A DNA stretch of 32,000 nt from an archaeon (GTDB lineage: Archaea; Iainarchaeota; Iainarchaeia; Iainarchaeales; CSSED10-239): NCBI GenBank assembly GCA_035390665.1, contig DAOOUC010000003.1, positions 91,056-123,055 of the forward strand, read 5' to 3'. The position numbers and the translations under genes are program-made. Under the pieces are notes generated by a model. That model did no database searches. It was given only the letters and a program-made list of their open reading frames with translations, and had not been told where the DNA came from. Below are positions 3,001 through 25,814 of the stretch, piece after piece. How positions within the stretch are numbered: the first letter of the stretch is position 1; the number at the start of each line of letters is the position of its first letter.

Positions 3001-4572
3001 CTTATAAATTGTTATATCTCCTTTAACAACTCTAGTTGTGTCTCCGTTTGCATCAACTAAATTAACATTAATATAACCCAATCTTCCAATTTGACAACAA
3101 CTTCCGGTTTTTAATAAATTTCCATTTGTGTCTCTTGTATAATAATTAGTTAATAAAGAATTATTACAATCTAAACAACCATTTTTACAGAAAGGAGAAA
3201 ATATTGGATTTCTACAATCTAAATTTTGTAAATCACTTGGAGATAATAATAATAAGTTTACTGCGGTTGTATTATTAATTAAAACTTGTTTTCCTTCAGT
3301 TCTTTGAGAACTTATATATCCATCTTTACTTGTAGATAATGTATATGTTCCAGGAGCTAAATTTTCAAATACAAATCTTCCATAATAATCTGTAGTTCCT
3401 GTAACATAAACTAAATTTGATTCATTTATTGGTGTAGTTAAGTCATCCATCTTGTAAACAGACACAATTGCTCCAGTAACTTGGCCGCCTTGTAAATTAT
3501 TAACAAATGCTTCTATTTTCCCTACATTTGCAATAGTTTTTAATGAAAGCATTATTGTATTGTTTTCAGGAACAACTTGGTTTTGAACTAAATTATAATA
3601 ATCAGAAGTAACATCTATTCTTAAGAATCCGCAACCAGTTGGTTGATTAACTGTTAATTTCCCTTGTACTACATTTGATGTTGAAGGACTTGGTGTTTTC
3701 CCTGAATTTGAACAACTTAATTTTACTTGTAATAGTCTTGTAGCCAATAAGGTTTCATTTTCTTTAAATAATATTTCTCTTGTTTGCTCTTGAGATAAGA
3801 ATAATTGACCAGTTGTATCTATATCTAAAACAATTGTTTCAATTATGTTTTTCTTTGGTTCTATTGTTTTAATTTCTGTATTATAAGATTCTTTAGATGC
3901 AATTAGTTTAATGCTATCTTTTTTAGAAAACTTAATATCTTCAAAAATAGTATTTCCAAATGAATCTGTTGTTTGAGTAGTGTTTTCATCATTTATAGAT
4001 AATATTACTGTTGCCCCAGACAATAGACTATTTGTTGTATCTGTTACAGTAACATCAATTATTGAATTACCTCCAATTCCGGTTAAGACTCCAAAAAAGA
4101 AAATAAAGTAAATTATTGAAATTATTAATATTAAGAATAGAATAAAACTAGGAAATATTTTGTCTATTTGATCTGTTACTTTATTAACAGGTATTACTTT
4201 ACTTACACTATCTATTATAGAATAATATCCATCTTCAAAAAAGAAGTATATTTTTTTAAAGAAATTCATTATTGATGTCAATGGATTCTTTATCTGTTTT
4301 TTTTCTTTTGGTTTAGATTCTTGAGTTGTTTTTGATTCATCACTTTTTACTGATTTAGATAATTCTTTAAGTATCTTTTCTTTATCTTCCGTTTTTACTT
4401 GTGGTTTATCTCCTTTAAAAGAAACTTTATTTTTATCTAATTCTTTAATTACTTCTTTTGCTTTATTTTTATCAAATCCATCAGCCACAATTAATCCTTG
4501 TAATTCTTCTCTTGTAAAAGCTTTTGCTTTATTTTCTACAGCTTTATAGATTTGTTCTATTTCTTTGTTCAT
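1..4572 (-). CDS. Giant N-terminally membrane-anchored surface protein, 3'-truncated by the window edge (first 1524 codons); paralog of the 1991-aa ORF at 8394..14369
   Basis: ATG at 4572..4570. My translation of the minus strand stays open in this frame down to position 1. It is missing from the ORF track because no stop lies inside the window. The N-terminus is MNKEIEQIYKAVENKAKAF..., a Lys-rich stretch of about 140 aa, followed by the hydrophobic helix FPSFILFLILIISIIYFIFFFGVL (about 4084..4152). CarboxypepD_reg-like beta-sandwich segments follow, e.g. ...TGTTDYYGRFVFENLAPGTYTLSTSKDGY (about 3300..3530). It is collinear with the 1991-aa ORF: IPLEYSSVLNTG/IPLEYSSALNSG, YQTDLISLVPGQ/YQTDLITLFPGQ, IRPQGYFYAPTS/IRPEGYFYASTT, KNETKTYDFNL/KNKTKSYNISL. 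Confidence 0.85.
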   Translation of the reverse strand, partial: MNKEIEQIYKAVENKAKAFTREELQGLIVADGFDKNKAKEVIKELDKNKVSFKGDKPQVKTEDKEKILKELSKSVKSDESKTTQESKPKEKKQIKNPLTSIMNFFKKIYFFFEDGYYSIIDSVSKVIPVNKVTDQIDKIFPSFILFLILIISIIYFIFFFGVLTGIGGNSIIDVTVTDTTNSLLSGATVILSINDENTTQTTDSFGNTIFEDIKFSKKDSIKLIASKESYNTEIKTIEPKKNIIETIVLDIDTTGQLFLSQEQTREILFKENETLLATRLLQVKLSCSNSGKTPSPSTSNVVQGKLTVNQPTGCGFLRIDVTSDYYNLVQNQVVPENNTIMLSLKTIANVGKIEAFVNNLQGGQVTGAIVSVYKMDDLTTPINESNLVYVTGTTDYYGRFVFENLAPGTYTLSTSKDGYISSQRTEGKQVLINNTTAVNLLLLSPSDLQNLDCRNPIFSPFCKNGCLDCNNSLLTNYYTRDTNGNLLKTGSCCQIGRLGYINVNLVDANGDTTRVVKGDITIYKKNTDSNGYQSIETREDVNSANFFVLTGNYKIAVTNTEDYGYFPATPVDVNGVDRNISIPLEYSSVLNTGIIGVKVKKENYNYAGASVYLYDEDDTEIPINSPKTTNSSGDVNFPMVRANRDYFAFAVASGYQGQSNTEELDANDFLELSVNLESQAKILNLNVNVRDYNISFYSTTDQLITDYSINTISDTNKDYIFRCPQNEMYAVISAENKSTYQTDLISLVPGQKIYYKVILGNQQNNAVANIEFLGIYDESGINKLNTINIAEHRNRTLKLKYKFTTTTKDNRDLAYAFIRAGKSITLSSDYLRLETVFAPGATFTRGCNYHGSLVDWNESYFTANYEPDHSQTNCANQTGFKWAKINFSDSEADQIEFSVNFKFQNELTQLDNYVIYYRALTKSDNENYVFSPTLNNSWQNCNIRPQGYFYAPTSFYQIPFTNSNYNLIQNIYDWNNSQGSLLLKNGENYELKINHNYLSNQKFIYLSTTHNINNEDINAYSVNTLNALLYKSYSYKSQDENQSATGINATTYKINSLSAEFGTEFDHNSVFGVNNFFNTNAKISTNILDIQEINPRNENVLSYYDDSNVFIEILTNDLDNSNNIYIGDNAVSFRVRDKFGNPIPDILIKYQMSLFPEVVLGETNENGYLVDRNISLTESRLGDNITFRFTFPVSYGLLSNQIVINKNIKSGYKLVHTTGTTIDVNHPLIYNVGKYTVNGVTNYTTDDKNYYVVKSSAYNSQLNVTLEGRSGFISFTDMNVYLQENNILPTTISDSNKLIKTQIKTVLIPQNATTVVGTYINTLNIGIFDNQPIIFTLDADIKINKEFDVNLNTNTIGITKPGKVIENNEIFIELIKNVSPIVDFNYTITNNSANPITIGATSFIDPTVSGLSIDIIPTQVNVSSGQTTNFQIKSQLQGNADATSNYKSAAILFGITANNNGFIMPLDIKIRIYNPSEIYSIKKNPNLSPPWAQGMSCSYDSCSQVLNTILKNETKTYDFNLYSV

Positions 4573-4574
4573 AA

Positions 4575-6716
4575 TTATCTAATATTAAATAATGGAGTAA
4601 ACTCTATTTGTTTTATTATTTCTGATTGTTTATAAACTATAAGATATCTTTGACCAGGACAGAATAATTTTACATTTGAAATATCTTCTAAATTCAACTG
4701 TTCTGGTATATAGATTAATTTATTTTTTGAGATTTTAAATTCTTTAATATCTTGCCCGAAAGTAAAACTATCACTTACAGATATTATTTCGCCAGGTTTT
4801 AAAGAATAAACAATATAATTTTGATCTGTTGGAAATCCTGGAGGCCTAAATAAATTTCCATCAGGAGTTAAATAATAAATATTTAAATCTGTTATATTTG
4901 AACTTATAGTAGAATATATAGTATATTCTTTATCTATTCTTAATGGATTATCTAATTCAAGACCATCACATACTGGACAATAGACAAGATTGAATAATGC
5001 ATTAGGAACTTGATTTGTATTATTATCAAAATCACTAGCTATGTCTCCTAAATTTGTAGCTTCTAAACTTAAATTATCTGTAATATAAGATAATTGAGAA
5101 TTTCCTAATGATTTTAAATAACAAGATTTTATATTTATGTTAGAAAAATTAATAGGAACGTGTTTAACTATCTCTAATTTTTTTGGAAGATAACTTCCAG
5201 AAGCAAGATATTTAATATTTATATCTCCAATTGTTGGATCTTCCCCTCCACAAGCTTCTGTTGTACAACTACAATTAACTGCAGTTATAGAATCAATATT
5301 GTCTTCATTTAATTCTGTTTTAATATTAATATTCCCACTTTTATTAAAAAGATAATCTACATTTATTGAACCAATACTTCCTGCAGTTCCAAAATAAGAT
5401 GGTTCTGTAGGATATGAAGAATTAAACCCCTTTTTTCCACTAACTGAATAATAATTAAAATCACCATTATTAATAAATTTGGTAATGTTTAAATCAGAGA
5501 TCAATCCTCCATTCCCTCCATATCCATCTGTTCCTCCTCCATCATGTGCATTATCTCCTCCATTACCGCCATTACCCGCAATAATATTCCACATAATAGA
5601 TCCATTATTTATTAAATCATTATTTCTTAATATTATTTTACCTGTAGAGCCGCCTATTCCTCCATCTGCATTATCATTACGACAATGATTAGCCCCCGCA
5701 TCTCCTCCATTACCACCATTACCACTATTTAATGTAATATAAAAATTAGAGTTATTTAATTTAATTTTTGATATATCAAATACTACACTTCCACTTATTG
5801 CTCCTGAACCCCCCGCTTTAGGATCTCCTGAACATCTTGGGCCGCCTCCTTCAGATGCACCACTACCGCCATCTCCTCCATTTCCTGAAATCAGTATTAA
5901 GTTTAATTCAGAATTATCTATTAATTCTAAATATTTTAAAATAAGATTAGAATCCCCCCCAGTCCCTCCATCTCCGCCAGCTTTACGAGGGCTATCCGTT
6001 TTTCCTGTAGATCCTTTCGCGCCATTTCCTCCAACCAAATTTATATTCATATTACTTGAATTTATTATACTATTAATATCTAATATTGATGGGCCACCAG
6101 GGGTTCCGACATATGGACCAGATGTTGTACTATCTGATCTATTATTTGGGGTTCTTGAAATTAAACTTAAATTTAAATCTGAATTAAAGCCTACAAATAA
6201 ATTTTTTAACTTTACTTTAATTCCGTGTGCCCTTCTATAGGCATCATTATCTGCCCAAGATCTTTCGGCTTCTAAAAATAACAATTTTGAATTTGTATTA
6301 TTTGATAAATAAATATCTGTATTTATATCTATTGTCGTTAATTGAACTACGTTGTCTAAATTATCTATATTAAAAGTTAAACTACCATTATTTTTTATTA
6401 AAATTTTATCTATGCCTGTAATTTTATAATTGCTTTTAGATTCATTTAATGTAATTGTATTATTTCCGACAATTTCTAAAATTGTGGTCTTATTATCACA
6501 ATAAGTAACATTTGGCAATTTAACGAAATTTAAATCAGTATTAGTTATCTGAGTAGGTATTCTTATAATATATTCCCCTTGTTGCCCTCCACTAACATCT
6601 TGAGTAACTCCCGAAATTGTTTGAAAACAATTTGTGGTTGCAAAAATAGAATGTAAAGATAATTGCACAAATATAAAAATAAAAACTAAATTTAAATATT
6701 TTATCTTCATTATCAT
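4575..6716 (-). CDS. Secreted glycine-rich repeat protein (713 aa), paralog of the 674-aa ORF
   Basis: Long ORF in AT-rich DNA. There is an ATG at 6716 and a second in-frame ATG at 6710; an AAGGT overlapping the upstream stop is better spaced for 6710. The N-terminus looks like a signal peptide: KIKYLNLVFIFIFVQLSLHSIFA|TTNC. Residues about 199-450 carry GNGG-anchored repeats. The C-terminal 215 aa or so align with the 674-aa ORF (GSYLPK, YCPxC, EYxIYS, FKxxKNKL, LFCxGQxY). The TAA stop at 4575..4577 lies only 2 nt from the next ATG. Confidence 0.9.
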   Translation of the reverse strand: MIMKIKYLNLVFIFIFVQLSLHSIFATTNCFQTISGVTQDVSGGQQGEYIIRIPTQITNTDLNFVKLPNVTYCDNKTTILEIVGNNTITLNESKSNYKITGIDKILIKNNGSLTFNIDNLDNVVQLTTIDINTDIYLSNNTNSKLLFLEAERSWADNDAYRRAHGIKVKLKNLFVGFNSDLNLSLISRTPNNRSDSTTSGPYVGTPGGPSILDINSIINSSNMNINLVGGNGAKGSTGKTDSPRKAGGDGGTGGDSNLILKYLELIDNSELNLILISGNGGDGGSGASEGGGPRCSGDPKAGGSGAISGSVVFDISKIKLNNSNFYITLNSGNGGNGGDAGANHCRNDNADGGIGGSTGKIILRNNDLINNGSIMWNIIAGNGGNGGDNAHDGGGTDGYGGNGGLISDLNITKFINNGDFNYYSVSGKKGFNSSYPTEPSYFGTAGSIGSINVDYLFNKSGNINIKTELNEDNIDSITAVNCSCTTEACGGEDPTIGDINIKYLASGSYLPKKLEIVKHVPINFSNINIKSCYLKSLGNSQLSYITDNLSLEATNLGDIASDFDNNTNQVPNALFNLVYCPVCDGLELDNPLRIDKEYTIYSTISSNITDLNIYYLTPDGNLFRPPGFPTDQNYIVYSLKPGEIISVSDSFTFGQDIKEFKISKNKLIYIPEQLNLEDISNVKLFCPGQRYLIVYKQSEIIKQIEFTPLFNIR
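5367..6122 (-). repeat. Protein-level tandem repeats (4-5 units of about 46-54 aa) anchored on GNGG[NDA]GG
   Basis: Anchors are LVGGNGAKGS (aa 229), ISGNGGDGGS (278), NSGNGGNGGD (332) and IAGNGGNGGD (381), with a degenerate SVSGKKG (427). Each unit has an Asn/Ile/Leu beta-strand-like stretch (LIDNSELNLILIS, LINNGSIMWNIIA), then GNGGxGG, a Gly/Asp/Ser/His/Pro loop and a second GGxGG. Locally G+C-enriched DNA (GGN codons) explains the Pro-rich antisense ORF at 5479..5688. Confidence 0.8.
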
Positions 6717-16435: not shown

Positions 16436-16834
16436 TTATGATTGCTTAAATGGGAAAGTTAAAGAAATATTTTGATCTTGTTCACCATATTTTAGTGTTG
16501 ATGAAATAAAATAAAATTTAAAGAAATCTTTAGCAACTAATATTTGTACATCTTTTGTTGCATCTTTGTTTCTTATAAAGAATAGTTTTCCCGTATCTGA
16601 GTTTTTACAAGTACTGTAAATATTTATTTGCGGTAAGTTTTGCCCGGGATAAAATTTACTTGCGGTAAAATTGCCTGAACAGTTAATTAAGTTATCTGGA
16701 TCTTCAATTTTACCGAAAACAATAGGATAAATGTTTCTGTTTTCTGTAGGAAATGATATCCAATCTTCTGCAAAGACAAATCTAACATTAACTAACAGAA
16801 ACAACAATAGCATTATTTTAAAATATTTTTTCAT
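16436..16834 (-). CDS. Small secreted protein (132 aa), unknown function
   Basis: ATG at 16834, 10 nt after the upstream stop. Clear signal-peptide-like N-terminus MKKYFKIMLLLFLLVNVRFVFA|EDWI. Two Cys residues. The C-terminal tail ...ISLTFPFKQS resembles the tails of the 499/674/713-aa proteins. It sits inside a tightly packed operon. Confidence 0.75.
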   Translation of the reverse strand: MKKYFKIMLLLFLLVNVRFVFAEDWISFPTENRNIYPIVFGKIEDPDNLINCSGNFTASKFYPGQNLPQINIYSTCKNSDTGKLFFIRNKDATKDVQILVAKDFFKFYFISSTLKYGEQDQNISLTFPFKQS

Positions 16835-16844
16835 TTTATCCCAT

Positions 16845-19800
16845 TTAATTAATTCCTGTTATTCCAATCCCTGTGTATATGTTATTATTTCCATAGATTA
16901 CTTTTGGATTCCAATAGAATTCTGTAGTCTTTCCACTATCAGAATTAACAACACAAATTTGGTTGGTTTTCACTTTCTCAAAGATGTTTGTTAAATTATC
17001 TGTATTATAATTTTCGCCATTACTTAAAAGATTCTTGGTATAACTGTCGTTTGGATTTTTATTATCTTTATTAAATTTAACAATTACATCTCCTCTTGAT
17101 TTACTTGTTAATTTATAGATGCTATTATGTGAATCATAAGGAACATAAAATATTGTTCTTAAGTTTACTATTCCTTTTCTTGCAACAGTATCCCAATCTA
17201 TTGCATAAGAATTATACATTCTTTCATCAGGTGTTGTTTGTCTATCATAGAAATTTATAAATCTAGAATATACATATTCTCCTGAGAAATCATAATAGTT
17301 ACTATCTCCAACTCCATTCCATACTCCTAAACTAGTGCCACCATATAATGGTTGATTTGATGGATCCGTTATTTGATAGTATGCACTAAATGGCATTAAA
17401 TTTGTTCTTGTTACGCTCATTAATGTTGCATTTGGATAGTTTGGAGAATAGATTAATTGAATCTGATCTTCTGTTTGTTCTTTTATTGTAAGTATGTTAC
17501 CTCTTGTTTCTACATTGCTGTTTATTTTAAAGAAATCTTTATTATATTGTACATTTAAATATTTCTTTGGATTTGATGAACTACTATATTTTGTAGTTAA
17601 AGGCAATTCTCCTTGTTTACTTATTGTTATTTCATCACCCATATATGCTAAACCATAATTTTGTCTGGAATATCCATTGTTTGTTAAACCTACTGCACCA
17701 TTAAATGGCATTCTGTAGAAAATACTATCGCTTTCTGGTCCAGAGATATATGTTAAAGTTACTGTTGTATTAACATCTAAATCATCTGCTCTTATAAAAT
17801 CCCAGTGCTCATTTCCAAATATAAAATCAATTCTTACTTTATATTTTCCTGGAACTAAAATGTTTACACCTGATTGATTATTTGTATATTTTAAATTAAA
17901 TTCTGTGTTATCTCTAAACAATTTTGAATATATCCCATTTTGATAATAACTTGGAGCACCTAAGAAAGCATAAGTACTTGATTGTCCAGCAGACATTTTT
18001 CCACCATAAGCTTTATCAAAGTCTGTTTGGAATTGTTTATTATAATTGTCTGTGATTAGATATGCGTCAAACTCTATTGTTTGTTTTAATTGTTGTATGT
18101 CTTCTATATTCCATTCACTAATGACATTATTTGGATATTGTTCTTTATTAAACCACATATCTATGTAGTCTACTCCATTAAATTGAGCGGTTGTTATTGG
18201 AACTTGACAAGGACCTCCTGTTGGTTGTGCCTGGTGCACACTTAAATTAATATCTGTTGTGTAATATGTTTGATTTGGATCTTCTAAATAAGTATTTGCT
18301 CCAGAATATTCAACTTCTAACTTAATATTGTTTCCTATTAGAGGGTTTGCTTGTTCACCATAAGTAAACCAATACTCTGCTGTATTTTCATTTTCACAAG
18401 CTGGAACTGTTGTGTTTAATATTGGATTGATTGTATTTATTCCAATCACTGTTCCTTCAGTGTGTTGTCTTTCAGTTGTACAATTATCATTTGGAAGTAA
18501 TTCTGTATATGATTTTAATATTTGATTTCCTAATTTTAGATTTAATGTTCCTGTTTTTAAAGAACCTGTTCTATTTTCTATAACTACTCCAATCTTTACT
18601 AAATTACCATCTGTTCTTGCACTTACATTTTGTAAACCAATGTAACCTGCAGGAATTTCATTATCTAGATTTGGAACACTTGAAGTTAAATTATATGATC
18701 CAGACAATGCTTGATCAAGAACTTGCCCTGTACTTCTTGGACAAATTATTTCTTTATTTTCTAATTGATCTTCTACTTTTTTCATTCTTTCAATAATTAC
18801 TTGAGACAATTGTGTAGCATCACAATATTGATTACCTGTGCTACAAACATTTGTATCAAAACCTGTTGTTTTCCATGTCCAATCAAGATTTACTTTTGGC
18901 ACAGCTCCCTCTCCAGTTTTACCAACCTTCCCTGAATCTGTAAAACAATCAACCATATTCTGGTCAACTTGTGGGCTATCAGGATATTGTTTAGAGATAA
19001 ATGCAAATCTGAAATCTCCAATAGGTTGTGAACCAACAAAGGCTTTGTCTTGTGAACCATTATTATCATTTAAAGTTGGTTTGAAAGTAATATTCTTATA
19101 AACAATATCTCCTCTTAGAAGTTTTTGATATGTGCTATTGCCATCTATTGAATAATCAACAACGAAATCAATAGGTTTAATACCTGCTTGTTCTGGCCAT
19201 ATTGCTTTATCGTATTTACAAGAAGTATATACTTCAAATTCTAAATTTATTTTATTTCTTGTTGGTTTACTACCATAACATTGAACTCCTGCAATTATTT
19301 GATCTTCAGTTACTTCATATTTATCAAATTTATCATTACAGTTTTCGTTTTTTACTATTCTTTTATATTCATCAAAGAATTCTTGGTGTTGTTTTCCACC
19401 ACATTTTGGCATTTCTGTATCTAACATTTCATCTGATGTTAATTTATTTGTTTTATCGTTATCAGTTTTACCTATTAATTTCAAATAAGTAAAATATCTT
19501 GCACCAGTAATATCAAACACATTTACAAATTCTTCTTGATCCCCATCTGATATAATTTTAATTTCTTTTGTAGTTTCAAAGTCAGGCATCGTGTAAATTT
19601 GAGAAACATCTAAAACATGATAATGAGGATTAAATGAATAATCATTATGCCAGGTTGATGCCATCCATCCACCAATTGCTATAACACCAATTGCAGCCCA
19701 ACCCCATGGTCCAATTGCTGCTAATACCGTGTACAAAGGACCTAAAAATGCTCCACCTGCATATGTACCTGCAACAGATCCAAATACCATTGCCATTGTT

Positions 19801-22800
19801 AAACTACTAGTCCCTGCAGCTAATGCTCCGCCAATTATTGCTGTTGTTGCTAATGATGCTGCAACAGTAGATGCTGTATTCCACCATTCTGCTCCATCAT
19901 CGGTTTGATTTGTTAATTCATTTGGGAGACTAAATAACATTTTTTCAAAATATGGACGTTCTTCTGAAGTTACCATAAATCTTGAAAAGCCTGTGTCGCC
20001 TTCAACTTTTTGAACAGCATAGTCCCAAGGTGTAACATTTATATCGCTGTTTAATAGTCTTACAGTCTGACTTGAATATATTTCTGTTCCAATTTCATTT
20101 TGTGTCTTTTCCATTTCTATAAATGGATCTTCCATGTATAATCCTGAAGAAGAATGTACGTTTACTTTTAATCTCTTTTCAATATTAACTATTGCCCTTC
20201 CCGTGTCTCCAAGAACAGATATCTTTACAGGTATAATATATGCTCCTGGTACTTCTGGCTTTATTATTCCAACAACTTGTGTTGTGTCTCCTCTATTAAA
20301 GTTTATTTCGTTCTGTAGAAGACCTTCCATGTTGTCGTATCTTACTTTTTGACAACCATACCATTTCTTACCTTCACAGAATTCTAATTTAAATCTTCCA
20401 AGATCTGAACAATTATTCTTAACATTTAGTTCTTTTATTTCGCCTTCAAAAGTTTCTTTAGGTACTACTAACATGTTGTTAATCTTTTTTGAACCATCAT
20501 AGAAGTCAATACAGTCTTGTATCTTTCTTATTGCAATGTCTGTTGTAAATGCTATTTCTTTTGAAGTATTTACATATTTTAAACCATCGTTAGTTTCTAC
20601 TTGTCCATTAATATAAATCTTTGTCTTAACATCTCCAAACTTTTTATCAAGAGCTCTATATTCAATTATTGCTGCGTGTGGTCCTGGAGATAAATCATTA
20701 AAGATTGTGGTATATGCTCCTTCTGAAAGAGTTATTGATTTACCATCAACTGTTAAAATATAATTACCATACATGTCTTTATCATTAACAATTTTTGCTC
20801 TTATGTTCTTTAAGTTTATTGATTCTTCAGAATTTCCCTTTACTCTACAGTTGTTTGTTATTGTAAATGTTTGAATAACTGCACTATTACCACTAACAAT
20901 AGATTGCCATGGATTACTTACTCCATTAACAACCAAACAATCATCTTCTTCTACTCCTTCGCCAACTGATAACTTAACATTCATTGGTATCTCAAATGGA
21001 TAAGTAGTTTGACTTTCACCAACTAAAACATTACCTGTAATTGTCCCAACAAGATTTAAAGTTTCAACAAGATTTTCTGCATCTTGAGATGCTGCTAGTT
21101 TTAATTTAATATCTGCTTCTCCATTTGCTGGAACAACAATGTTACCAACTTGAGAATTTAAATAATTCTTTAATTGTTCAATATTTAAATAATTAGAATT
21201 ACTAAAACTAAAGCCATCGTCTGTAAATTCCTTTAATGTTAATGGATAATCTGTTTTATTAACAATTGTTAATCTTTTCTCTGTACCTTGTGGATTTGAT
21301 TTATTAATATTTAAAATAAATGGCGATGCGGGTTTTACTTCACTACCATCTTGCTTTAAACTTAAAATGTCTTGATTAATAACTATTTCTACTGGTGCTG
21401 AATAATATCCACTTTTTTCTACAGAAATTATTATTTTTTCTGCATTCTTTAATGGAGGTAAATTTATAGAAGCAACACCAATGTCGTTTGTTCGTTGTTG
21501 TCCAACATTTAGTGCAATTAATTGATTGTTTCCTTTTTTCTGATAGATGTTAACAATTGCATTAGTTATTGGTTGATTAGAATTGTCCATTGCAATTACT
21601 TTTAATGTAAATGCTTTATTTGGCACAATATTTTGTGGTTCGTAAGTAATTGTAAAAGGAAATTGTTGACTTGCAGTTATTTCTATCATCTTATTATAAG
21701 CAACTAATTGACCAGAAATTATTTTATTTTGTATTCTTGTTCCTCCAAGTAATACTGGTTTAATTGTGGTATTAACATAAATTTTATCATAAACATTAAT
21801 TGTTTGAGAATCTAAATAATCCCCATAGAAAGGAATACTATTTCTTGTCTGTTCTCCACTACTTGATGAAGAACTAAATCCTGCTCCTGAAATTGTGTAA
21901 TTTAAGAAATTAATTGCTTGTGTTGGTATTTCGTTATTATTTTCAATATTCTTTATTGTTAATCTATTATTATAGAATACATTAGATTTAGCATTTGTTA
22001 TTTCATAATTAAATTGATATGTTTTATTTACAATCAATCCATTATTTGTTTCATCTAAATCATAAGCAATTCCATCCTCTGTATCTACAAACTGACCTTT
22101 TATACAGAAGTCTTCTGAACATAATTCACTTACATCAATATAATAGATTTTTTGATTACCAAGGGTGTTTGGTTCTGGTGCAACCCCAGTATAAATTGAG
22201 TAATATATTGGAATAGCTGCCCCTCTTGTAGCCGCAAGAGTTTGCACAGGTATAGTTAATTCATAAACTCCTGCCTGCACATTTGAAAACATTGTATCTG
22301 TCATCTTTGTTGGAGAATCTTGTAATACTCTTGTTGGTAAAGTGTCTGAATAATATGCTGTGTTAGCTATTGAATTAAGTATTGGTTTAATTAATACAAT
22401 ATCTTCAGTAATATTATTTTTTTCTCCAATTAAAAACCTAATTCCGAGATTTCCTGGATTTGGTGTGATTAATCTAAACTTAAAATTAAATCTTGCATTT
22501 TGTGTAAAATTTTCTGTTGATTGTTCTGAAATATTATATAATCCAATTAATTCTGCTGTTGGAGTTGTTGCATATCCAGATCTATATAATTTTATTTCTT
22601 TATTTAATGTTTCATTCTTAATTACAGGCATTAATTCTGTAAAATAATCATAATATCCTGTTTTGCTTATTTTAGCATAAACTATTTTATCTGCTTTTAT
22701 TTTTTTATTATAAATTCCTGATTGATTTGCTTGATCAAGTCCTATTTCTTCTCCAGTGATATTATATAATCTAATGTCTGCAAAATCTATTGTTTCATTA

Positions 22801-24389
22801 TTTATGTTTTTTATATTAAGATTGATTGTTCCTTGTCCAATATTTATTAATATAGAAACATTAGAATCTGTTGGTGGTGTGTGCGTAAATTTATTTGATT
22901 CTCCAACAACATTTGTTTTTCTTAATTTAACAAAGTAATAGCCTGTTGGAATATTTTCAAAACTTGCCTGTCCATTAACATCTGTAAGTAATGGAGTAAA
23001 TCTTGTATCAATATATCCTAAGTTTCCATCATATAACCATAATGTTGCACCCACAATAGGCAAATTATCTTCGTCTTTTACACTTATATTAATATCAGAA
23101 ACATTACTTACTGTTATTTTTTCTAAAAATATAGAATATTCATTTACATTTGGAGTTATATTTCTTACTTGTGGGATATATCCTTCTGCTTTTGCAGTTA
23201 AAGAATAATTTTTACCGTCTTCTATTCGTAGCATTATTCCGGTTTGAGTATATGCTTTAGTATCAACTGTTTGATTTGCATCTAATATCAATAAAACATT
23301 TGGCATATATTCTACAGAAATTTCTTGATTTGTTTCACTATCTTTTAAAATAACTTTTATATCTCTTGTAACAATAGAAACAATTGAATCTCCTGGATTT
23401 ACAACTTCATTAATTGCATCTAACTCTAAACTTACTTGTGATTCAACATTTTTTGTAACAATAAAATTAGCTGATTTTGTTTGATATCTTGAAGAATCAT
23501 CTGTTGCTGTTACTATATATTCTCCTGTCTCAATATTTGAAAACCTTCTTGCTCCAAATTGAGATTGTCCAGAAGTAACAGGATTAATTGTGTCTTCTAC
23601 TTTATATATTCTTAAAGTAATTCCATCTAATGGGTTTGCTCCACTTTTTACTGTTACTCTAACTTGTCCATATTCTGCTATTATTGATTTTTCTTGTAAT
23701 TGAATTATGCCCGTCTCAGGATTAATAATTACATTTGTTGCTGAATATGTGTTTCCGATAGCTGTTGCAACAAGTCTATTACACATTAAAGGTAATTCAA
23801 ATGTGCCTTTTCCATTTTCTACATTTGTTATTGATGGAACAACAACCTGTGTGCCATCTTGACAAGTAATTGTTACATTTAATTTTTCTGAAACTAATTG
23901 ACCATCAGGCCCAATAAATTGTAATGATTTATTTTGTTTTGATGCAATCTCAAATATATCAACAGTAAAGTTTAATCTTGATTTGCTTAAATCTAATACT
24001 TCTTCTTTATACTTATACCCTTTTTTATTTATGATTAATGCATAATCACCATATTTATTTAATTCAATTGTAAAAATACCTTTACTATCGGTTCTATAAC
24101 TTTGAGTAGAATTACTATTTAAATTTTTTATTTCAAATTCGAAATTTGTTAATAATTTGTTTGTATTATCTGCAATTGCAATTGTATAAACGCTTGTTTC
24201 TTCGGTTAAGTTTGAAGAAAATGGTTTAAATATTAAAAAGAGAATAACAAGAATAATCGCAATAAATAAAAACAAAGAAGCAGTAGGAAAAAGTTTATCT
24301 ATTGGTTTTGTAAGCCATTTAATTGGTATTCTTTCGTTTATTTTTTCAATAGTTGCCTGATATTTTTCTGAAAAACTCATACATTTCAC
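16845..24389 (-). CDS. Giant N-terminally membrane-anchored surface protein (2514 aa) with beta-sandwich array, internal Gly/Ala-rich hydrophobic segment and family C-terminal region
   Basis: The track start is GTG at 24389 (MKCM...). An in-frame ATG at 24380 (MSFSEKYQ...), preceded by GTGA, is at least as likely. TM helix ASLFLFIAIILVILFLIF (about 24228..24284). There are at least 6 CarboxypepD_reg-like segments; the most canonical is INISVKDEDNLPIVGATLWLYDG...TDVNGQASFENIPTGYYFVKL (about 22925..23100). Further Ig-like segments follow (LTIVNKTDYPLTL, FTITNNCRVKGN, LNVKNNCSDLGRF). An uncharged hydrophobic block spans aa 1502-1581. The C-terminal 700 aa or so are shared with the other giants. 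Confidence 0.92.
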   Translation of the reverse strand: MKCMSFSEKYQATIEKINERIPIKWLTKPIDKLFPTASLFLFIAIILVILFLIFKPFSSNLTEETSVYTIAIADNTNKLLTNFEFEIKNLNSNSTQSYRTDSKGIFTIELNKYGDYALIINKKGYKYKEEVLDLSKSRLNFTVDIFEIASKQNKSLQFIGPDGQLVSEKLNVTITCQDGTQVVVPSITNVENGKGTFELPLMCNRLVATAIGNTYSATNVIINPETGIIQLQEKSIIAEYGQVRVTVKSGANPLDGITLRIYKVEDTINPVTSGQSQFGARRFSNIETGEYIVTATDDSSRYQTKSANFIVTKNVESQVSLELDAINEVVNPGDSIVSIVTRDIKVILKDSETNQEISVEYMPNVLLILDANQTVDTKAYTQTGIMLRIEDGKNYSLTAKAEGYIPQVRNITPNVNEYSIFLEKITVSNVSDINISVKDEDNLPIVGATLWLYDGNLGYIDTRFTPLLTDVNGQASFENIPTGYYFVKLRKTNVVGESNKFTHTPPTDSNVSILINIGQGTINLNIKNINNETIDFADIRLYNITGEEIGLDQANQSGIYNKKIKADKIVYAKISKTGYYDYFTELMPVIKNETLNKEIKLYRSGYATTPTAELIGLYNISEQSTENFTQNARFNFKFRLITPNPGNLGIRFLIGEKNNITEDIVLIKPILNSIANTAYYSDTLPTRVLQDSPTKMTDTMFSNVQAGVYELTIPVQTLAATRGAAIPIYYSIYTGVAPEPNTLGNQKIYYIDVSELCSEDFCIKGQFVDTEDGIAYDLDETNNGLIVNKTYQFNYEITNAKSNVFYNNRLTIKNIENNNEIPTQAINFLNYTISGAGFSSSSSSGEQTRNSIPFYGDYLDSQTINVYDKIYVNTTIKPVLLGGTRIQNKIISGQLVAYNKMIEITASQQFPFTITYEPQNIVPNKAFTLKVIAMDNSNQPITNAIVNIYQKKGNNQLIALNVGQQRTNDIGVASINLPPLKNAEKIIISVEKSGYYSAPVEIVINQDILSLKQDGSEVKPASPFILNINKSNPQGTEKRLTIVNKTDYPLTLKEFTDDGFSFSNSNYLNIEQLKNYLNSQVGNIVVPANGEADIKLKLAASQDAENLVETLNLVGTITGNVLVGESQTTYPFEIPMNVKLSVGEGVEEDDCLVVNGVSNPWQSIVSGNSAVIQTFTITNNCRVKGNSEESINLKNIRAKIVNDKDMYGNYILTVDGKSITLSEGAYTTIFNDLSPGPHAAIIEYRALDKKFGDVKTKIYINGQVETNDGLKYVNTSKEIAFTTDIAIRKIQDCIDFYDGSKKINNMLVVPKETFEGEIKELNVKNNCSDLGRFKLEFCEGKKWYGCQKVRYDNMEGLLQNEINFNRGDTTQVVGIIKPEVPGAYIIPVKISVLGDTGRAIVNIEKRLKVNVHSSSGLYMEDPFIEMEKTQNEIGTEIYSSQTVRLLNSDINVTPWDYAVQKVEGDTGFSRFMVTSEERPYFEKMLFSLPNELTNQTDDGAEWWNTASTVAASLATTAIIGGALAAGTSSLTMAMVFGSVAGTYAGGAFLGPLYTVLAAIGPWGWAAIGVIAIGGWMASTWHNDYSFNPHYHVLDVSQIYTMPDFETTKEIKIISDGDQEEFVNVFDITGARYFTYLKLIGKTDNDKTNKLTSDEMLDTEMPKCGGKQHQEFFDEYKRIVKNENCNDKFDKYEVTEDQIIAGVQCYGSKPTRNKINLEFEVYTSCKYDKAIWPEQAGIKPIDFVVDYSIDGNSTYQKLLRGDIVYKNITFKPTLNDNNGSQDKAFVGSQPIGDFRFAFISKQYPDSPQVDQNMVDCFTDSGKVGKTGEGAVPKVNLDWTWKTTGFDTNVCSTGNQYCDATQLSQVIIERMKKVEDQLENKEIICPRSTGQVLDQALSGSYNLTSSVPNLDNEIPAGYIGLQNVSARTDGNLVKIGVVIENRTGSLKTGTLNLKLGNQILKSYTELLPNDNCTTERQHTEGTVIGINTINPILNTTVPACENENTAEYWFTYGEQANPLIGNNIKLEVEYSGANTYLEDPNQTYYTTDINLSVHQAQPTGGPCQVPITTAQFNGVDYIDMWFNKEQYPNNVISEWNIEDIQQLKQTIEFDAYLITDNYNKQFQTDFDKAYGGKMSAGQSSTYAFLGAPSYYQNGIYSKLFRDNTEFNLKYTNNQSGVNILVPGKYKVRIDFIFGNEHWDFIRADDLDVNTTVTLTYISGPESDSIFYRMPFNGAVGLTNNGYSRQNYGLAYMGDEITISKQGELPLTTKYSSSSNPKKYLNVQYNKDFFKINSNVETRGNILTIKEQTEDQIQLIYSPNYPNATLMSVTRTNLMPFSAYYQITDPSNQPLYGGTSLGVWNGVGDSNYYDFSGEYVYSRFINFYDRQTTPDERMYNSYAIDWDTVARKGIVNLRTIFYVPYDSHNSIYKLTSKSRGDVIVKFNKDNKNPNDSYTKNLLSNGENYNTDNLTNIFEKVKTNQICVVNSDSGKTTEFYWNPKVIYGNNNIYTGIGITGIN
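19647..19886 (-). other. Region encoding an 80-residue uncharged Gly/Ala/Thr/Ser/Trp-rich hydrophobic segment (predicted multi-pass membrane or glycine-zipper segment) inside the 2514-aa ORF
   Basis: aa 1502-1581: WWNTASTVAASLATTAIIGGALAAGTSSLTMAMVFGSVAGTYAGGAFLGPLYTVLAAIGPWGWAAIGVIAIGGWMASTWH. It contains no D/E/K/R, while the rest of the protein is dominated by N/K/I/D/E. GSVAGTYAGGAFLG contains a GxxxGxxxG motif. The DNA is visibly more G+C-rich here than in its surroundings. Confidence 0.75.
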
Positions 24390-24458: not shown

Positions 24459-24490
24459 AAAGAAAAAGAAGATGAGCAGAAAAGCTCATC
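24459..24490 (-). terminator. Intrinsic-terminator-like hairpin plus T-tract after the 442-aa gene
   Basis: The minus strand reads GATGAGC-TTTTCT-GCTCATC, a perfect 7-bp stem with four G:C pairs and a 6-nt loop (24490..24471). It is immediately followed by TTCTTTTTCTTT. The TGA stop (24486..24488) sits in the 5' arm. This is the only G:C-containing perfect inverted repeat I found in an intergenic position. Confidence 0.6.
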
Positions 24491-25814
24491 TACAATCAGT
24501 TAATGGTTTAGAATAACAAAATGCTGCTGTTGTTTTACAGGTTGTATTACTTTGACAAGCAGCAACAGAATATAATGAAATTTGATTATTTGTACAGGTT
24601 GCTGCATAAACTGTTTGTGCATCTGGTCTACAAACACACCCAAAAGCACCTGATTGTAACCCAGCATCAGCACATTTCCCCACATCTCCTGTAGTTCCAG
24701 AAGTAAATGTTGTTGTGTAATATTTAATGACTGCTGGTGTTTGAATGGTTGAAGAAGGAATAACCGGCGTATTTGTTACTGGTGCTGACACGGGCACACT
24801 TGGTGTTTCTACTGGAACTTGCGTACTCCAGGTCATAGTTGTATTACATCCAATTGTAGCGCCTTTCCAACAAGAAGTATTTAAATTACCTGGATATTCT
24901 CCTAGATAAATATAATTGTGATTTGTTGGATTCCACATTTTATTATATGGCCCATAAACAACAGTTGATCCATTGAAACATTTTTCAACACCATAGTAGT
25001 TTTGTTTATTACTTCTTACACACACACATCTATAGTTTAAACTATCTTGCTCTATTGGATAATCTTCAATATTACATTGTTGTGCTGCATTTCTAGTAAT
25101 TAAAACATAATTAAAGGTTTTGGTTATTGTTTGTGGCTCAATATAATTGTATTCTAAATTTATTTGGCTAGTGTCTAAAATCCAAGTTAATAAACAATTT
25201 TTTCTTAAATTATTACAATTTTGATTATTTTCATTACAAAAGAACAGAATTATTTTATTATTCATTTCACAGTTTAAAACGGTTTTTTGCTCAAGCAAAT
25301 CTAAATTATAAAAGGTAGCATAGCTTATGGTGACTTTGTCTGGAGTTTTCTGTAAAAATAATAAAACATATGGTTCATTTATTGATTCATTTGTTGTAAA
25401 TTGAAATCTTGACTGAGAATTATTAAATTTAATTTTTGTAATGTTTGAATTTGGATTTAATGTATATCTGGTGTTACCATTATGTAAATTATATCCTGCA
25501 TTTTGATTATCAGCTAAAAAGTTATTTATTTCTGTAATTGCTGAATTTGTTGTATTAAGATTAAAAAACATAACATATGTTGTGTTTGTCGAAAAGATTG
25601 GATTTAGAGTTATATCCACATTCTTTATTTTATTCTTATAATTAAAAACAAATGCCTGCTCTGTTGATTCTGTGGTACTTGATAAAGAAACATAAGATTG
25701 ATCTGAAATATTGTAGTTAACAGAAGCAATTGGTTTTATTTCTAAGGTGTTTGCATTAATTATGGTTATTTGTATTATGCAAAATAAAGCAATTAATAAT
25801 GTTATTTTTTTCAT
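24486..25814 (-). CDS. Secreted Cys-rich protein (442 aa) with Pro/Thr/Val linker and C-terminal 8-Cys mini-domain
   Basis: ATG at 25814 with a strong AGGTGG 4 nt upstream. Signal-peptide-like MKKITLLIALFCIIQITIINA|NTLE. Linker TQVPVETPSVPVSAPVTNTPVIPSSTIQTPAV (aa 331-361). The tail (aa 381-442) has 8 Cys. A duplicated motif reads RCVCVRSNKQNYYGVEKCFNG / GCVCRPDAQTVYAATCTNN. This is the only gene here ending in TGA; the other seven visible stops are TAA. Confidence 0.88.
   Translation of the reverse strand: MKKITLLIALFCIIQITIINANTLEIKPIASVNYNISDQSYVSLSSTTESTEQAFVFNYKNKIKNVDITLNPIFSTNTTYVMFFNLNTTNSAITEINNFLADNQNAGYNLHNGNTRYTLNPNSNITKIKFNNSQSRFQFTTNESINEPYVLLFLQKTPDKVTISYATFYNLDLLEQKTVLNCEMNNKIILFFCNENNQNCNNLRKNCLLTWILDTSQINLEYNYIEPQTITKTFNYVLITRNAAQQCNIEDYPIEQDSLNYRCVCVRSNKQNYYGVEKCFNGSTVVYGPYNKMWNPTNHNYIYLGEYPGNLNTSCWKGATIGCNTTMTWSTQVPVETPSVPVSAPVTNTPVIPSSTIQTPAVIKYYTTTFTSGTTGDVGKCADAGLQSGAFGCVCRPDAQTVYAATCTNNQISLYSVAACQSNTTCKTTAAFCYSKPLTDCR

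Follow-up and report, generated by a model that had tools for sequence, protein, structure and literature searches.

A lineage-variable hydrophobic segment, possibly a helical hairpin, in a family of giant Iainarchaeota surface proteins

Comparison with described systems

Marginally hydrophobic helical hairpins, either two-span or re-entrant, insert cooperatively and do not form a sequence family. Like these, the giant surface protein described here (ORF F) has two uncharged, weakly hydrophobic helices and a tight Pro/Gly turn, and its distal span is of constant length with interfacial aromatic residues; unlike these, its element lies between two huge putative ectodomains, has an upstream arm of 0 to 83 aa, carries no positive turn charge and is absent from part of the family. 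Transmembrane glycine zippers, (G,A,S)xxxGxxxG, are packing motifs of channels, VacA and amyloid-forming peptides, and ORF F shares with them a Gly/Ala-rich hydrophobic composition and a single literal GxxxGxxxG. Viral fusion peptides and toxin hairpins have well-conserved sequences and sit within dedicated machinery of helices or coiled coils. ORF F resembles viral fusion peptides or loops and the hairpins of toxins (diphtheria toxin T domain, colicins) in having an uncharged Gly/Ala stretch or ~40-aa helix-turn-helix inside a large secreted protein with receptor-binding-like domains, but its segment varies more than any other part of the protein, has beta-rich flanks and can be missing.

Bacterial adhesins of the MSCRAMM and SpaA type are held by a sortase signal to the cell wall or by a C-terminal anchor and have no mid-protein hydrophobic hairpin. 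ORF F is archaeal and has an N-terminal signal anchor, but shares with them N-proximal CarboxypepD_reg, SpaA and SdrD_B domains above Pfam cut-offs and a C-terminal module whose best, though weak, fold matches are FnBPA, Cna, SdrE, Bap and PrgB Ig-like domains. In SPEARE-type proteins of Nanohaloarchaeota (SVXNc_0300), a TM domain is followed by a cytosolic VirB4/TraG-like ATPase (PMC10266531). Like ORF F, these are giant surface proteins of DPANN archaea that have an export signal at the N-terminus, a long Ig-like/beta-sandwich array and a hydrophobic segment that is distant from both ends and splits the protein. The 930 aa downstream of the segment in ORF F, however, are beta-rich, weakly adhesin-like, free of an ATPase and probably extracellular, and no sequence relationship between ORF F and SPEARE-type proteins was detected.

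The protein family and its uncharged junction

ORF F was found in a 32,000-nucleotide stretch of archaeal DNA (the window), where it encodes 2514 aa on the reverse strand. Its true start is probably the ATG at 24380, three codons inside the GTG-initiated frame, because orthologs begin with MSFSEKYQ or MNFSEKYQ. All neighbouring genes encode secreted or anchored proteins. The following parts were distinguished:

16845..24389, minus strand: ORF F, giant surface protein with full-length orthologs at 41-99% identity
24216..24284, minus strand: N-terminal signal-anchor TM helix, aa ~36-58 (KD19 maximum 3.11; crude Hessa-scale sum -5.8 kcal/mol)
19887..24215, minus strand: putative N-proximal ectodomain, aa ~59-1501 (Pfam matches above cut-off; invariant alignment columns)
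19647..19886, minus strand: uncharged Gly/Ala-rich hydrophobic junction, aa 1502-1581, the run reaching N1582 (found at this position in most family members)
19815..19880, minus strand: upstream Gly/Ala-rich helix, aa 1504-1525 (AF2 helix 65-86 of model m52ce7e0ce57c, pLDDT <50)
19698..19712, minus strand: turn/kink motif GPWGW, aa 1560-1564 (ortholog alignment)
19644..19706, minus strand: distal helix WGWAAIGVIAIGGWMASTWHN, aa 1562-1582, length-conserved (AF2 helix 122-140)
16848..19643, minus strand: C-terminal module, aa 1583-2514 (mostly beta-strand; AF2 mean pLDDT 83.7)

The ~35-aa tail ahead of the signal anchor is K/R-rich (7 K/R vs 4 D/E), and an N-in orientation is therefore predicted. 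CarboxypepD_reg, SpaA and SdrD_B pass Pfam cut-offs in aa 73-536, beta-sandwich repeats of these types occupy the first ~1000 aa of the N-proximal ectodomain, and ten Cys positions in this ectodomain are invariant among aligned orthologs. The segment separates this beta-sandwich region of ORF F from a distinct region on the C-terminal side, as the preliminary description of this DNA had stated; the Cys by which the latter had been characterized are indeed there (12 residues), but they do not distinguish it, as the N part has 10.

ORF F belongs to a large family, unnamed and uncharacterised, of giant Iainarchaeota (DPANN) surface proteins, for which a profile search yielded 658 cluster representatives and a genome scan 63 loci, the named ones all of Iainarchaeota/Diapherotrites type. 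The family layout runs from an N-terminal signal anchor through ~1450 aa of beta-sandwich repeats and the hydrophobic junction to a ~930-aa C-terminal module, which is the most widely conserved part according to profile search and genome scan.

The 80-residue uncharged string first noticed at aa 1502-1581 (19647-19886) was recovered, and the complete run without D, E, K or R spans 81 aa (aa 1502-1582). It contains G 13, A 18, T 9, S 6, I+L+V 17, W 6 and no Cys, and the Trp-flanked ends described before are present, with W at both termini of the segment. The second-longest uncharged run in ORF F measures 31 aa, and the longest in other proteins of the window 48 aa, the latter polar and not hydrophobic; among the window proteins, only ORF F has a hydrophobic stretch away from the N-terminus. 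Given 20.4% charged residues, 2e-5 runs of 81 aa are expected in ~10,500 aa, and in 2000 shuffles of ORF F the longest uncharged run averaged 29 with a maximum of 57.

We confirmed that the segment is genuine and not an assembly artefact, because it recurs in orthologs, both near-identical and more diverged, whose contigs come independently from other samples (P0001 99%, P0002 85%, P0003 72%). A local GC content of 45%, against about 26-32% around the junction, and the existence of short paralogs, which show that the C-terminal module can be a separate gene, might hint at a chimeric assembly, a frameshift or two genes fused here. The probability of such an origin is nevertheless negligible: the GC rise results from Gly and Ala codons, numerous contigs of independent origin, as well as complete genomes such as those of AR10 and Ca. 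Forterrea multitransposorum, carry the segment within one continuous ORF, and the junction contains no stop codon and no repeat, a search for DNA-level tandem repeats there being negative. The independent assemblies effectively refute this explanation.

A run of 30 or more uncharged residues was present in 77 of 111 full-length representatives, where it started at a median of aa ~1514 and ~850 aa before the C-terminus, and at 40 of 55 genome loci. Two intact syntenic orthologs, L011 (2447 aa) and L042 (2484 aa), are essentially without a hydrophobic segment, and in ~25% of the family the best 19-mer lies above +4.75 (crude Hessa sum), so that these members have no membrane-competent segment. 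Orthologs lacking the segment, named beforehand as possible counter-evidence, do therefore exist; they mark the junction element as dispensable, not as unreal. In short paralogs of ~980 aa, a signal peptide is followed by a Gly-rich, weakly hydrophobic counterpart of the junction and then by the same C-terminal module; the weak hydrophobicity of this counterpart suggests that the ancestral junction element perhaps formed no membrane span.

Membrane fit and proposed topology of the junction

We propose, at an even chance, that the segment forms a hydrophobic helical hairpin, variable among lineages, where two extracellular regions of the protein meet. A second membrane-embedded anchor between two large ectodomains, one of the possibilities raised initially, is thus the best-supported reading. 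The N-terminal tail would lie in the cytoplasm, followed by the signal-anchor helix (aa ~36-58) and, outside, by a first ectodomain, whose beta-sandwich repeats cover ~1450 aa. Next, a span rich in Gly and Ala would enter the membrane of the producing cell itself and not that of another cell, a tight turn or kink (GPxGW in the ORF F clade, CxPC elsewhere) would be located inside, and a span of constant length (~21 aa) with aromatic ends would return outward, capped by an acidic residue and followed by the 930-aa beta-rich C-terminal module as second ectodomain. Insertion would be co-translational, as a pair of marginally hydrophobic helices.

Hydrophobicity was assessed as 19-mer sums on a crude Hessa scale (kcal/mol) and as KD19. 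On the former, the best mid-zone 19-mer had a family median of +2.2, compared with +7.8 elsewhere outside the N-terminus; it was below 0 in 26% of members and above +3 kcal/mol in about 43% of the family. Mid-zone KD values reached 3.5, for example with IIAVVIIAIVIAILMAF in L019 and VVIGVIVMIVVMLMMM in Ca. Iainarchaeum andersonii, and such hydrophobic segments are expected to enter the membrane of the producing cell while being exported. For the ORF F junction efficient insertion is not assured, because its best 19-mers (+2.3 and +2.6 kcal/mol, vs -5.8 for the N-terminal anchor; crude Hessa sum) are only marginally hydrophobic; the best 19-mer of the upstream helix (aa 1504-1525) scored +2.25 kcal/mol on this scale. 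AF2 modelled two helices at the junction with pLDDT of 28-61, rising to >85 from residue 1580 on, and did not place the junction buried inside a domain, the helices being of low confidence.

The junction core common to the family consists of a Pro or CxxC turn, a ~21-aa helix, aromatic residues and an acidic residue. The turn reads (A/G)GPxG(W) in the ORF F clade and, in the corresponding place, CxPC in the clades of I. andersonii and AR10. Family-wide, a median of 21 aa (IQR 18-23) follows the last Pro or CxxC turn, whereas 0 to 83 aa precede it, and gaps amount to 10% in the distal helix vs 29% in the whole junction. In ORF F, the distal helix (aa 1562-1582) bears aromatic residues at both ends, is followed by D1583 and is a candidate for the inward-to-outward span; the helix at aa 1504-1525, in the length-variable half, may represent the outward-to-inward one. 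Before its turn ORF F has 59 aa, more than a single span requires, and these might either include a second helix or run along the membrane surface. The smallest version of the junction comprises 40 aa (19 + PGP + 18).

A non-membrane role of the segment, as a Gly/Ala-rich low-complexity linker, flexible or self-associating, that heads the C-terminal module, appears rather unlikely to us. Such a linker could serve for example in oligomerisation, as an elastomeric element or as a protein-protein interface, and could have become hydrophobic by compositional drift in some lineages. It would fit the very low sequence conservation and many indels, the low AF2 confidence, the only weakly hydrophobic counterpart in the short paralogs, the roughly 43% of members with poor 19-mers and the loss of the segment in L011 and L042. 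Against it stand a span-like distal helix with its constant ~21 aa, aromatic ends and acidic cap, the complete exclusion of charges over 40-100 aa in a proteome with ~20% charged residues, and KD19 values of 2.5-3.5 in many members, which to our knowledge are not seen among soluble extracellular linkers. Low Pro content and predicted helices also set it apart from elastin-type linkers.

The C-terminal module looks extracellular, as judged from sequence features and the structural model, and the number of passes would therefore be even, as in a hairpin; this parity is derived from the segment-less orthologs, the short paralogs with signal peptide, the acidic C-side flank and the beta-rich module. 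About three passes or a cytoplasmic C-terminal part had been considered originally. An odd-pass anchor of one or three spans, with the 930-aa region in the cytoplasm as in nanohaloarchaeal SPEARE-type proteins, would agree with three ~20-aa helices fitting within 80 aa, with one dominant, very hydrophobic helix in some relatives and with the DPANN precedent of a mid-protein TM preceding a cytosolic VirB4/TraG-like ATPase (PMC10266531), but we regard it as very improbable. L011, L042 and the ~25% of the family without a membrane-competent segment argue against it, as do the short paralogs, in which the module follows a signal peptide and is thus placed outside. Family-wide, the C-side flank is 4:1 acidic (D+E 444 vs K+R 110) and the first charge past the junction is D/E in 66 of 77 members (86%), contrary to the positive-inside rule. 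The module moreover is mostly beta-strand in a high-confidence model, contains Cys positions conserved in the alignment, and gave no Pfam, NCBIfam or PDB sequence match and no ATPase or other enzyme domain. Its Foldseek matches were all weak and comprised MSCRAMM-type adhesins, Bap, PrgB Ig-like domains and integrin legs as well as lectin/CBM-type beta-sandwiches and phage receptor-binding proteins. The N-side flank is mixed (D+E 337 vs K+R 231), no K/R cluster was found in either flank among 14 orthologs, and a positive-inside bias at the presumed cytoplasmic turn is absent (in-zone charges K+R 12 vs D+E 23).

Variability of the junction and its possible roles

Position and composition of the junction are kept across the family, but its sequence is not. 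Pairwise identity is 22.7% with 29% gaps, compared to 62-63% identity in the flanks, and total length ranges from 0 to ~100 aa. The expectation that the segment would be conserved while its flanks vary was therefore reversed, and this pattern disfavours a specific pore-forming segment, as had been envisaged, or a fusion segment.

[quoted passage not shown] A marginal hairpin might escape the membrane of the producer and insert into that of a partner or host, acting as anchor, fusion loop or seed of a bridge or pore at the end of a ~1450-aa stalk and beside an adhesin-like head. Apart from this lifestyle, the unfavourable crude insertion energy in ORF F (+2.3 to +2.6 kcal/mol), the turn without positive-inside signature, the weak likeness of the head to adhesins and phage receptor-binding proteins, and a stalk-and-head layout that is the same with or without the hairpin, fitting its facultative occurrence, would be compatible with this idea. 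We nevertheless consider it improbable. Known fusion peptides and hairpins of pore formers usually rank with the best-conserved parts of their proteins, whereas this segment is the least conserved and of variable length. The segments below 0 kcal/mol in a quarter of the family, with KD up to 3.5, would hardly clear the export channel without stopping in the producer's own membrane. Coiled-coil or heptad machinery, amphipathic shielding helices and a cleavage site were not seen, the flanks are beta-rich, and hosts are not established for Iainarchaeota.

A hairpin in the producer's own membrane could instead serve as a second lipid tether, not specific in sequence, that keeps the C-terminal module on the cell surface and closes the N-proximal repeat array into a loop. 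Constraint would then be limited to hydrophobic character and distal-helix length, which would explain why the junction drifts in sequence and length and is lost in some lineages. An essential tethering role fits poorly, since loss of the hairpin in a quarter of the family would shift the conserved module by tens of nanometres.

The glycine zipper proposed earlier is literally there as GSVAGTYAG, but, unlike in transmembrane glycine zippers, its frequency is as predicted from composition (1 observed vs 0.2 expected, p=0.20) and it is not conserved, occurring in just 4 of 14 orthologs; the segment shows no enrichment of small-xxx-small motifs, and an i+4 periodicity was not detected. In distant clades, 41% of members have a Cys directly after the segment (DPC), compared to ~9.5% by chance. 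This Cys co-occurs with that of an upstream CxW (odds ratio 4.8, p=4e-5, uncorrected for phylogeny), which is consistent with the two ends of the junction lying side by side.

A giant protein family with an uncharged central segment

All long open reading frames of the window lie on the minus strand, at a GC content of about 26%. Among them, positions 16845-24389 translate into a giant surface protein of 2514 aa (termed F), and the 80-aa string singled out in the preliminary description corresponds to its residues 1502-1581. The parts of F discussed here are as follows.

Features of protein F
16845-24389, minus strand: F, complete reading frame
aa 73-536, minus strand: Ig-like/prealbumin-like domains, Pfam PF13620, PF17802 and PF17210, all above gathering threshold
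aa 1502-1581 (19647-19886), minus strand: uncharged Gly/Ala-rich segment
aa 1583-2514, minus strand: C-terminal module

The listed GTG start of F (VKCMSFSEKYQ; window 24380-24389) is probably three codons too early, and the ATG at 24380 is the likelier start because orthologs open with MSFSEKYQ or MNFSEKYQ.

The longest run without D, E, K or R in F was 81 aa and the runner-up 31 aa, in a protein with 20.4% charged residues, whereas the longest uncharged run in 2000 shuffled versions of F averaged 29 aa and never exceeded 57 aa. Every other protein of the window lacked a hydrophobic stretch beyond its N-terminus. Local GC rose to 45% at the segment, which is explained by its Gly and Ala codons, and the same reading frame including the segment was present on independent contigs from other samples. 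No tandem repeat was found in the DNA of the segment, and a tandem-repeat origin of its length variation was rejected on this basis. Given the shuffling results, the codon-derived GC, the lack of a DNA repeat and the independent contigs, the segment described in mid-protein was borne out as real, and an artefact has next to no probability.

A word-indexed search returned 19 relatives of F, mostly full length and with 41-99% identity, of which the few named ones were labelled 'Candidatus Diapherotrites archaeon' or 'archaeon'. Scanning GTDB species genomes gave 63 loci of the F family, and every named locus was of Iainarchaeota/Diapherotrites type, including Ca. Iainarchaeum andersonii, the complete AR10 genome and Ca. 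Forterrea multitransposorum. An exhaustive profile search (50% clustering) yielded 658 cluster representatives at E<=1e-3 and 391 at E<=1e-30, mostly 2200-2700 aa long, with the C-terminal 450-700 aa as the most conserved part. The few source names seen read 'hypothetical protein', and a description of the family was not found in the literature on DPANN giant proteins and bridges. Several metagenome-assembled genomes carried two members on different contigs (loci L051/L059, L049/L062, L018/L064 and L027/L066), so that the family is multi-copy in some genomes.

The genomic setting was also conserved, in the order giant, ~980-aa protein, F-type giant, one or two small proteins, ~700-800-aa protein and ~1980-aa giant, and every gene product of the cluster in the window opens with a signal peptide or signal anchor. 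The giant was always directly followed by a small secreted protein of 132-137 aa, or by two of them (window 16436-16834, minus strand; L001 17472-18383). Directly upstream of the giant, orthologous loci encode short paralogs of ~980-1030 aa (L001 6948-9884; L003 624-3554; L011 860-3961; L042 289-3234), in which a signal peptide precedes a Gly-rich, weakly hydrophobic stretch, placed where the segment lies in the giant, and the same C-terminal module. In the window this slot (24486-25814) is taken by an unrelated secreted protein of 442 aa (G), as it is on the 99%-identical contig L067.

The only Pfam domains in F were CarboxypepD_reg, SpaA and SdrD_B domains (PF13620, 56.3 vs a threshold of 32.3 bits; PF17802, 53.5 vs 23.1; PF17210, 31.7 vs 29.7). 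The C-terminal module had no match in Pfam or NCBIfam, nor did the neighbouring genes when all window proteins were scanned, and a profile search of the module against PDB sequences gave no match at E<=1. The family is large and unnamed, with a C-terminal module that stands apart from these sequence databases, and it is encoded in a conserved cluster of giant secreted proteins. A first AF2 model from 13 sequences (aa 1320-2514) was too poor for use (pLDDT 50.5). A second one from a 45-sequence alignment (aa 1440-2514) reached a mean pLDDT of 83.7 and showed the module as almost entirely beta-strand. Foldseek searches against PDB and BFVD returned weak, generic beta-sandwich matches with low TM-scores, the best being extracellular beta-sandwiches of adhesin, lectin and CBM type along with phage receptor-binding proteins, and found no structural relative of the whole module.

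The module contains invariant Cys positions. The most invariant stretch of the family, C-x-TDSGKxGKTGxGALPxVxLDWxW...C...YCDATQ...CP (F aa 1815-1883, about 18741-18947; family alignment A3), includes four invariant Cys and a W-x-W. A P-loop reading of its DSGKxGKTG, a superficial resemblance, was rejected on inspection, as the spacing is GxxGKT and not GxxxxGK[ST] and an ATPase domain match was absent. In the ortholog P0013 a 29-aa stretch of the module (DANVYPSNVVSSWDKPSINTLKNYLEF) occurs in two perfect tandem copies, which stem either from a recent duplication or from an error of assembly.

Variation and anatomy of the segment

All orthologs aligned through this junction have a hydrophobic uncharged stretch at the same site, with lengths of ~30-95 aa and barely alignable sequences. 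Among twelve of the aligned sequences (P0017 and P0018, being partial, and P0019, being distant, were left out), pairwise identity in the segment was 22.7% with 29% gapped positions, against 62-63% identity in both the N-proximal region and the C-terminal module. This is the opposite of a conserved segment between varying flanks, the pattern raised in the preliminary description, and it does not support a pore or fusion segment (a pore- or bridge-forming one is considered there): a fusion peptide or pore-forming hairpin would be expected to show high conservation of its hydrophobic element.

Uncharged runs of at least 30 aa occurred in 77 of 111 full-length representatives, with a median start at aa ~1514, about 850 aa from the C-terminus, and at 40 of 55 genome loci. 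Two intact close orthologs with the same synteny have essentially lost the element, keeping only LGGVGYYLSGIFPLA (L011) and WVFIVSPATAAI (L042). Hydrophobicity of the junction formed a continuum across the family, with a median of +2.2 kcal/mol for the best 19-mer (F, +2.3). By comparison, the N-terminal anchors had a median of -4.9, and the best 19-mer in the remainder of these proteins one of +7.8, all values being crude, position-independent sums on the Hessa scale and not the output of a full delta-G predictor. The best junction 19-mer was below 0 in 26% of members (KD up to 3.5) and above +4.75 in about 25%. The segment is real and occurs family-wide, under loose constraint, in these uncharacterised giant surface proteins of archaea.

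The glycine zipper assigned to the segment from its sequence did not withstand shuffling. GxxxGxxxG occurred once vs 0.2 times expected (p=0.20) and in only 4 of 14 orthologs, and [GAS]xxx[GAS] occurred 17 times vs 15.8 expected (p=0.36), which is the level set by composition. A zipper packing face at a fixed position was not conserved among these 14 orthologs, whose aligned region is rich in indels. We therefore rejected the zipper, its motif being neither more frequent than composition predicts nor conserved.

A recurrent order was still discernible in the junction, namely a variable Gly/Ala-rich arm, a turn or kink, and a more hydrophobic helix. The turn reads (A/G)GPxG(W) in the clade of F and CxPC (CVPC, CLPC, CPPC) in the I. 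andersonii and AR10 clades. The arm upstream of it measured 0-83 aa, while the distal helix after the last Pro or CxxC turn had a median of 21 aa (IQR 18-23) and ends in aromatic residues directly followed by an acidic one; the first charge beyond the zone was D or E in 66 of 77 cases. Of the two candidate spans of a hairpin, for each of which ~18 aa or more would be needed, the distal helix is long enough; the proximal one is variable, Gly/Ala-rich and only marginally hydrophobic. The smallest junction, of 40 aa, reads ITGWGGFGISLIALPLLLL-PGP-WALFALLPIAMGFIAPTL (19 + 3 + 18). AF2 modelled helices at aa 1504-1525 and 1561-1579 of F at a pLDDT of 28-61 for the segment, and did not place it as the core of a domain.

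In distant clades, 41% of members have a Cys directly after the segment (DPC), vs about 9.5% by chance, and it co-occurs with the Cys of an upstream CxW (odds ratio 4.8, p=4e-5, not corrected for phylogeny). Both bracketing Cys are absent from the clade of F. Judged from these sequence patterns, the pair would fit a staple joining both ends of the segment, which is suggestive.

Topology and possible roles of the segment

F begins with a K/R-rich tail of ~35 aa and a strong hydrophobic helix, which points to an N-in signal anchor, so that everything downstream starts outside the cell. Four lines of evidence also put the C-terminal module outside. It is retained in members without a membrane-competent junction, it occurs behind a signal peptide in the short paralogs, the C-side flank is acidic (D+E 444 vs K+R 110 in the 15 aa after the zone, 131 family members), and the module is beta-rich with weak adhesin-type matches. 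A K/R cluster was present in neither flank of the 14 orthologs examined. From these lines we infer that the regions before and after the segment are both located outside the membrane, and hence that the number of passes is even. The division of F into two regions made in the preliminary description is supported, and so is, among its options, the second anchor between two ectodomains; its estimate of about three passes and the option of a cytoplasmic C-terminal part are not supported. By the same four lines, an odd-pass anchor with the C-terminal module in the cytoplasm is very improbable.

Our preferred reading, held with moderate confidence, is that the segment forms a helical hairpin embedded in the membrane, its two ends lying outside. 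It would be inserted co-translationally into the producing cell's own membrane and would serve as a second, sequence-unspecific tether between the two ectodomains. Not all observations favour a classical two-span hairpin: a positive-inside bias was not found at the presumed cytoplasmic turn, with K+R 12 vs D+E 23 within the zone, and both candidate spans in F are only marginally hydrophobic. The segment might instead be a non-membrane Gly/Ala-rich linker or self-association element, which we consider unlikely; embedding in the lipid of the producer's membrane is favoured by the constant, aromatic-capped distal helix of ~21 aa and by the very hydrophobic relatives. That the segment drifts in sequence, varies in length and has been lost repeatedly speaks for a generic role, not a specific one. 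On present evidence it looks like a loosely constrained, dispensable anchor.

The segment could also be a deployable element, putatively inserting into the membrane of another cell, carried at the tip of a stalk, for which the number of domains gives a rough length of 50 nm, and beside an adhesin-like head formed by the C-terminal module. In its favour, the geometry of stalk plus head would not depend on the presence of the hairpin. The poor conservation of the segment speaks against such a role, as do relatives whose segments are too hydrophobic to escape from the export channel, and we regard it as improbable. If true, the F family, so far seen in Iainarchaeota-type genomes only, would become a candidate for the machinery of contacts or bridges that has long been sought in DPANN archaea.

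Compared with known elements, the segment resembles in its behaviour the helical hairpins of marginal hydrophobicity known from membrane proteins, and is without the features that define glycine zippers, fusion peptides, toxin hairpins and PGF-CTERM signals. The last of these are tripartite and located at the very C-terminus, where they combine a PGF-type motif with a TM helix and a short basic tail. An archaeosortase signal of this kind was rejected for F, where the GPWGW turn and its helix lie inside the protein, ahead of an acidic residue and 932 further residues, and where the C-terminus itself (...GIGITGIN) has no TM helix.

The hairpin as preferred here, placed mid-protein between two large ectodomains, would be an unusual layout for a surface protein. 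With its natural variants with and without the hairpin, it might offer a concrete handle on the envelope organisation of uncultivated, very small archaea. The nearest described case are the SPEARE-type giants of Nanohaloarchaeota, in which a TM domain after a long Ig-like array leads into a cytosolic VirB4/TraG-like ATPase (PMC10266531). Unlike these, F has no such ATPase, as judged from the lack of Pfam, NCBIfam and PDB sequence matches in aa 1583-2514, and its downstream module is beta-strand in the AF2 model, has weak adhesin-type matches and probably lies outside the cell.

Other proteins of the window

Further large proteins are encoded around F.

Proteins near F
1-4572, minus strand: giant Z, cut by the window start
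4575-6716, minus strand: secreted protein A, 713 aa
8394-14369, minus strand: giant C, 1991 aa
14384-16408, minus strand: secreted protein D, 674 aa
25833-32000, minus strand: H, listed start 31874 (TTG)

The frame of H is open to the window end, so that H is a giant of more than 2055 aa with its N-terminus beyond the window; its visible part showed no Pfam match and no hydrophobic stretch. Z and C are paralogs (35% identity over ~1160 aa) of a family different from that of F, without the C-terminal module and the hairpin, and share with F only the N-terminal ~650 aa of beta-sandwich repeats. A and D are paralogs with 27% identity and had no Pfam or NCBIfam match. Each carries five ~50-aa repeats of the form '..LNL.L.SGNGG.GG..', with 20-26% Gly in aa ~200-400, a pattern that suggests a Gly-turn beta-helix. 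The bumps in GC and GC skew at 5-6 kb and 15-16 kb are probably due to these repeats.
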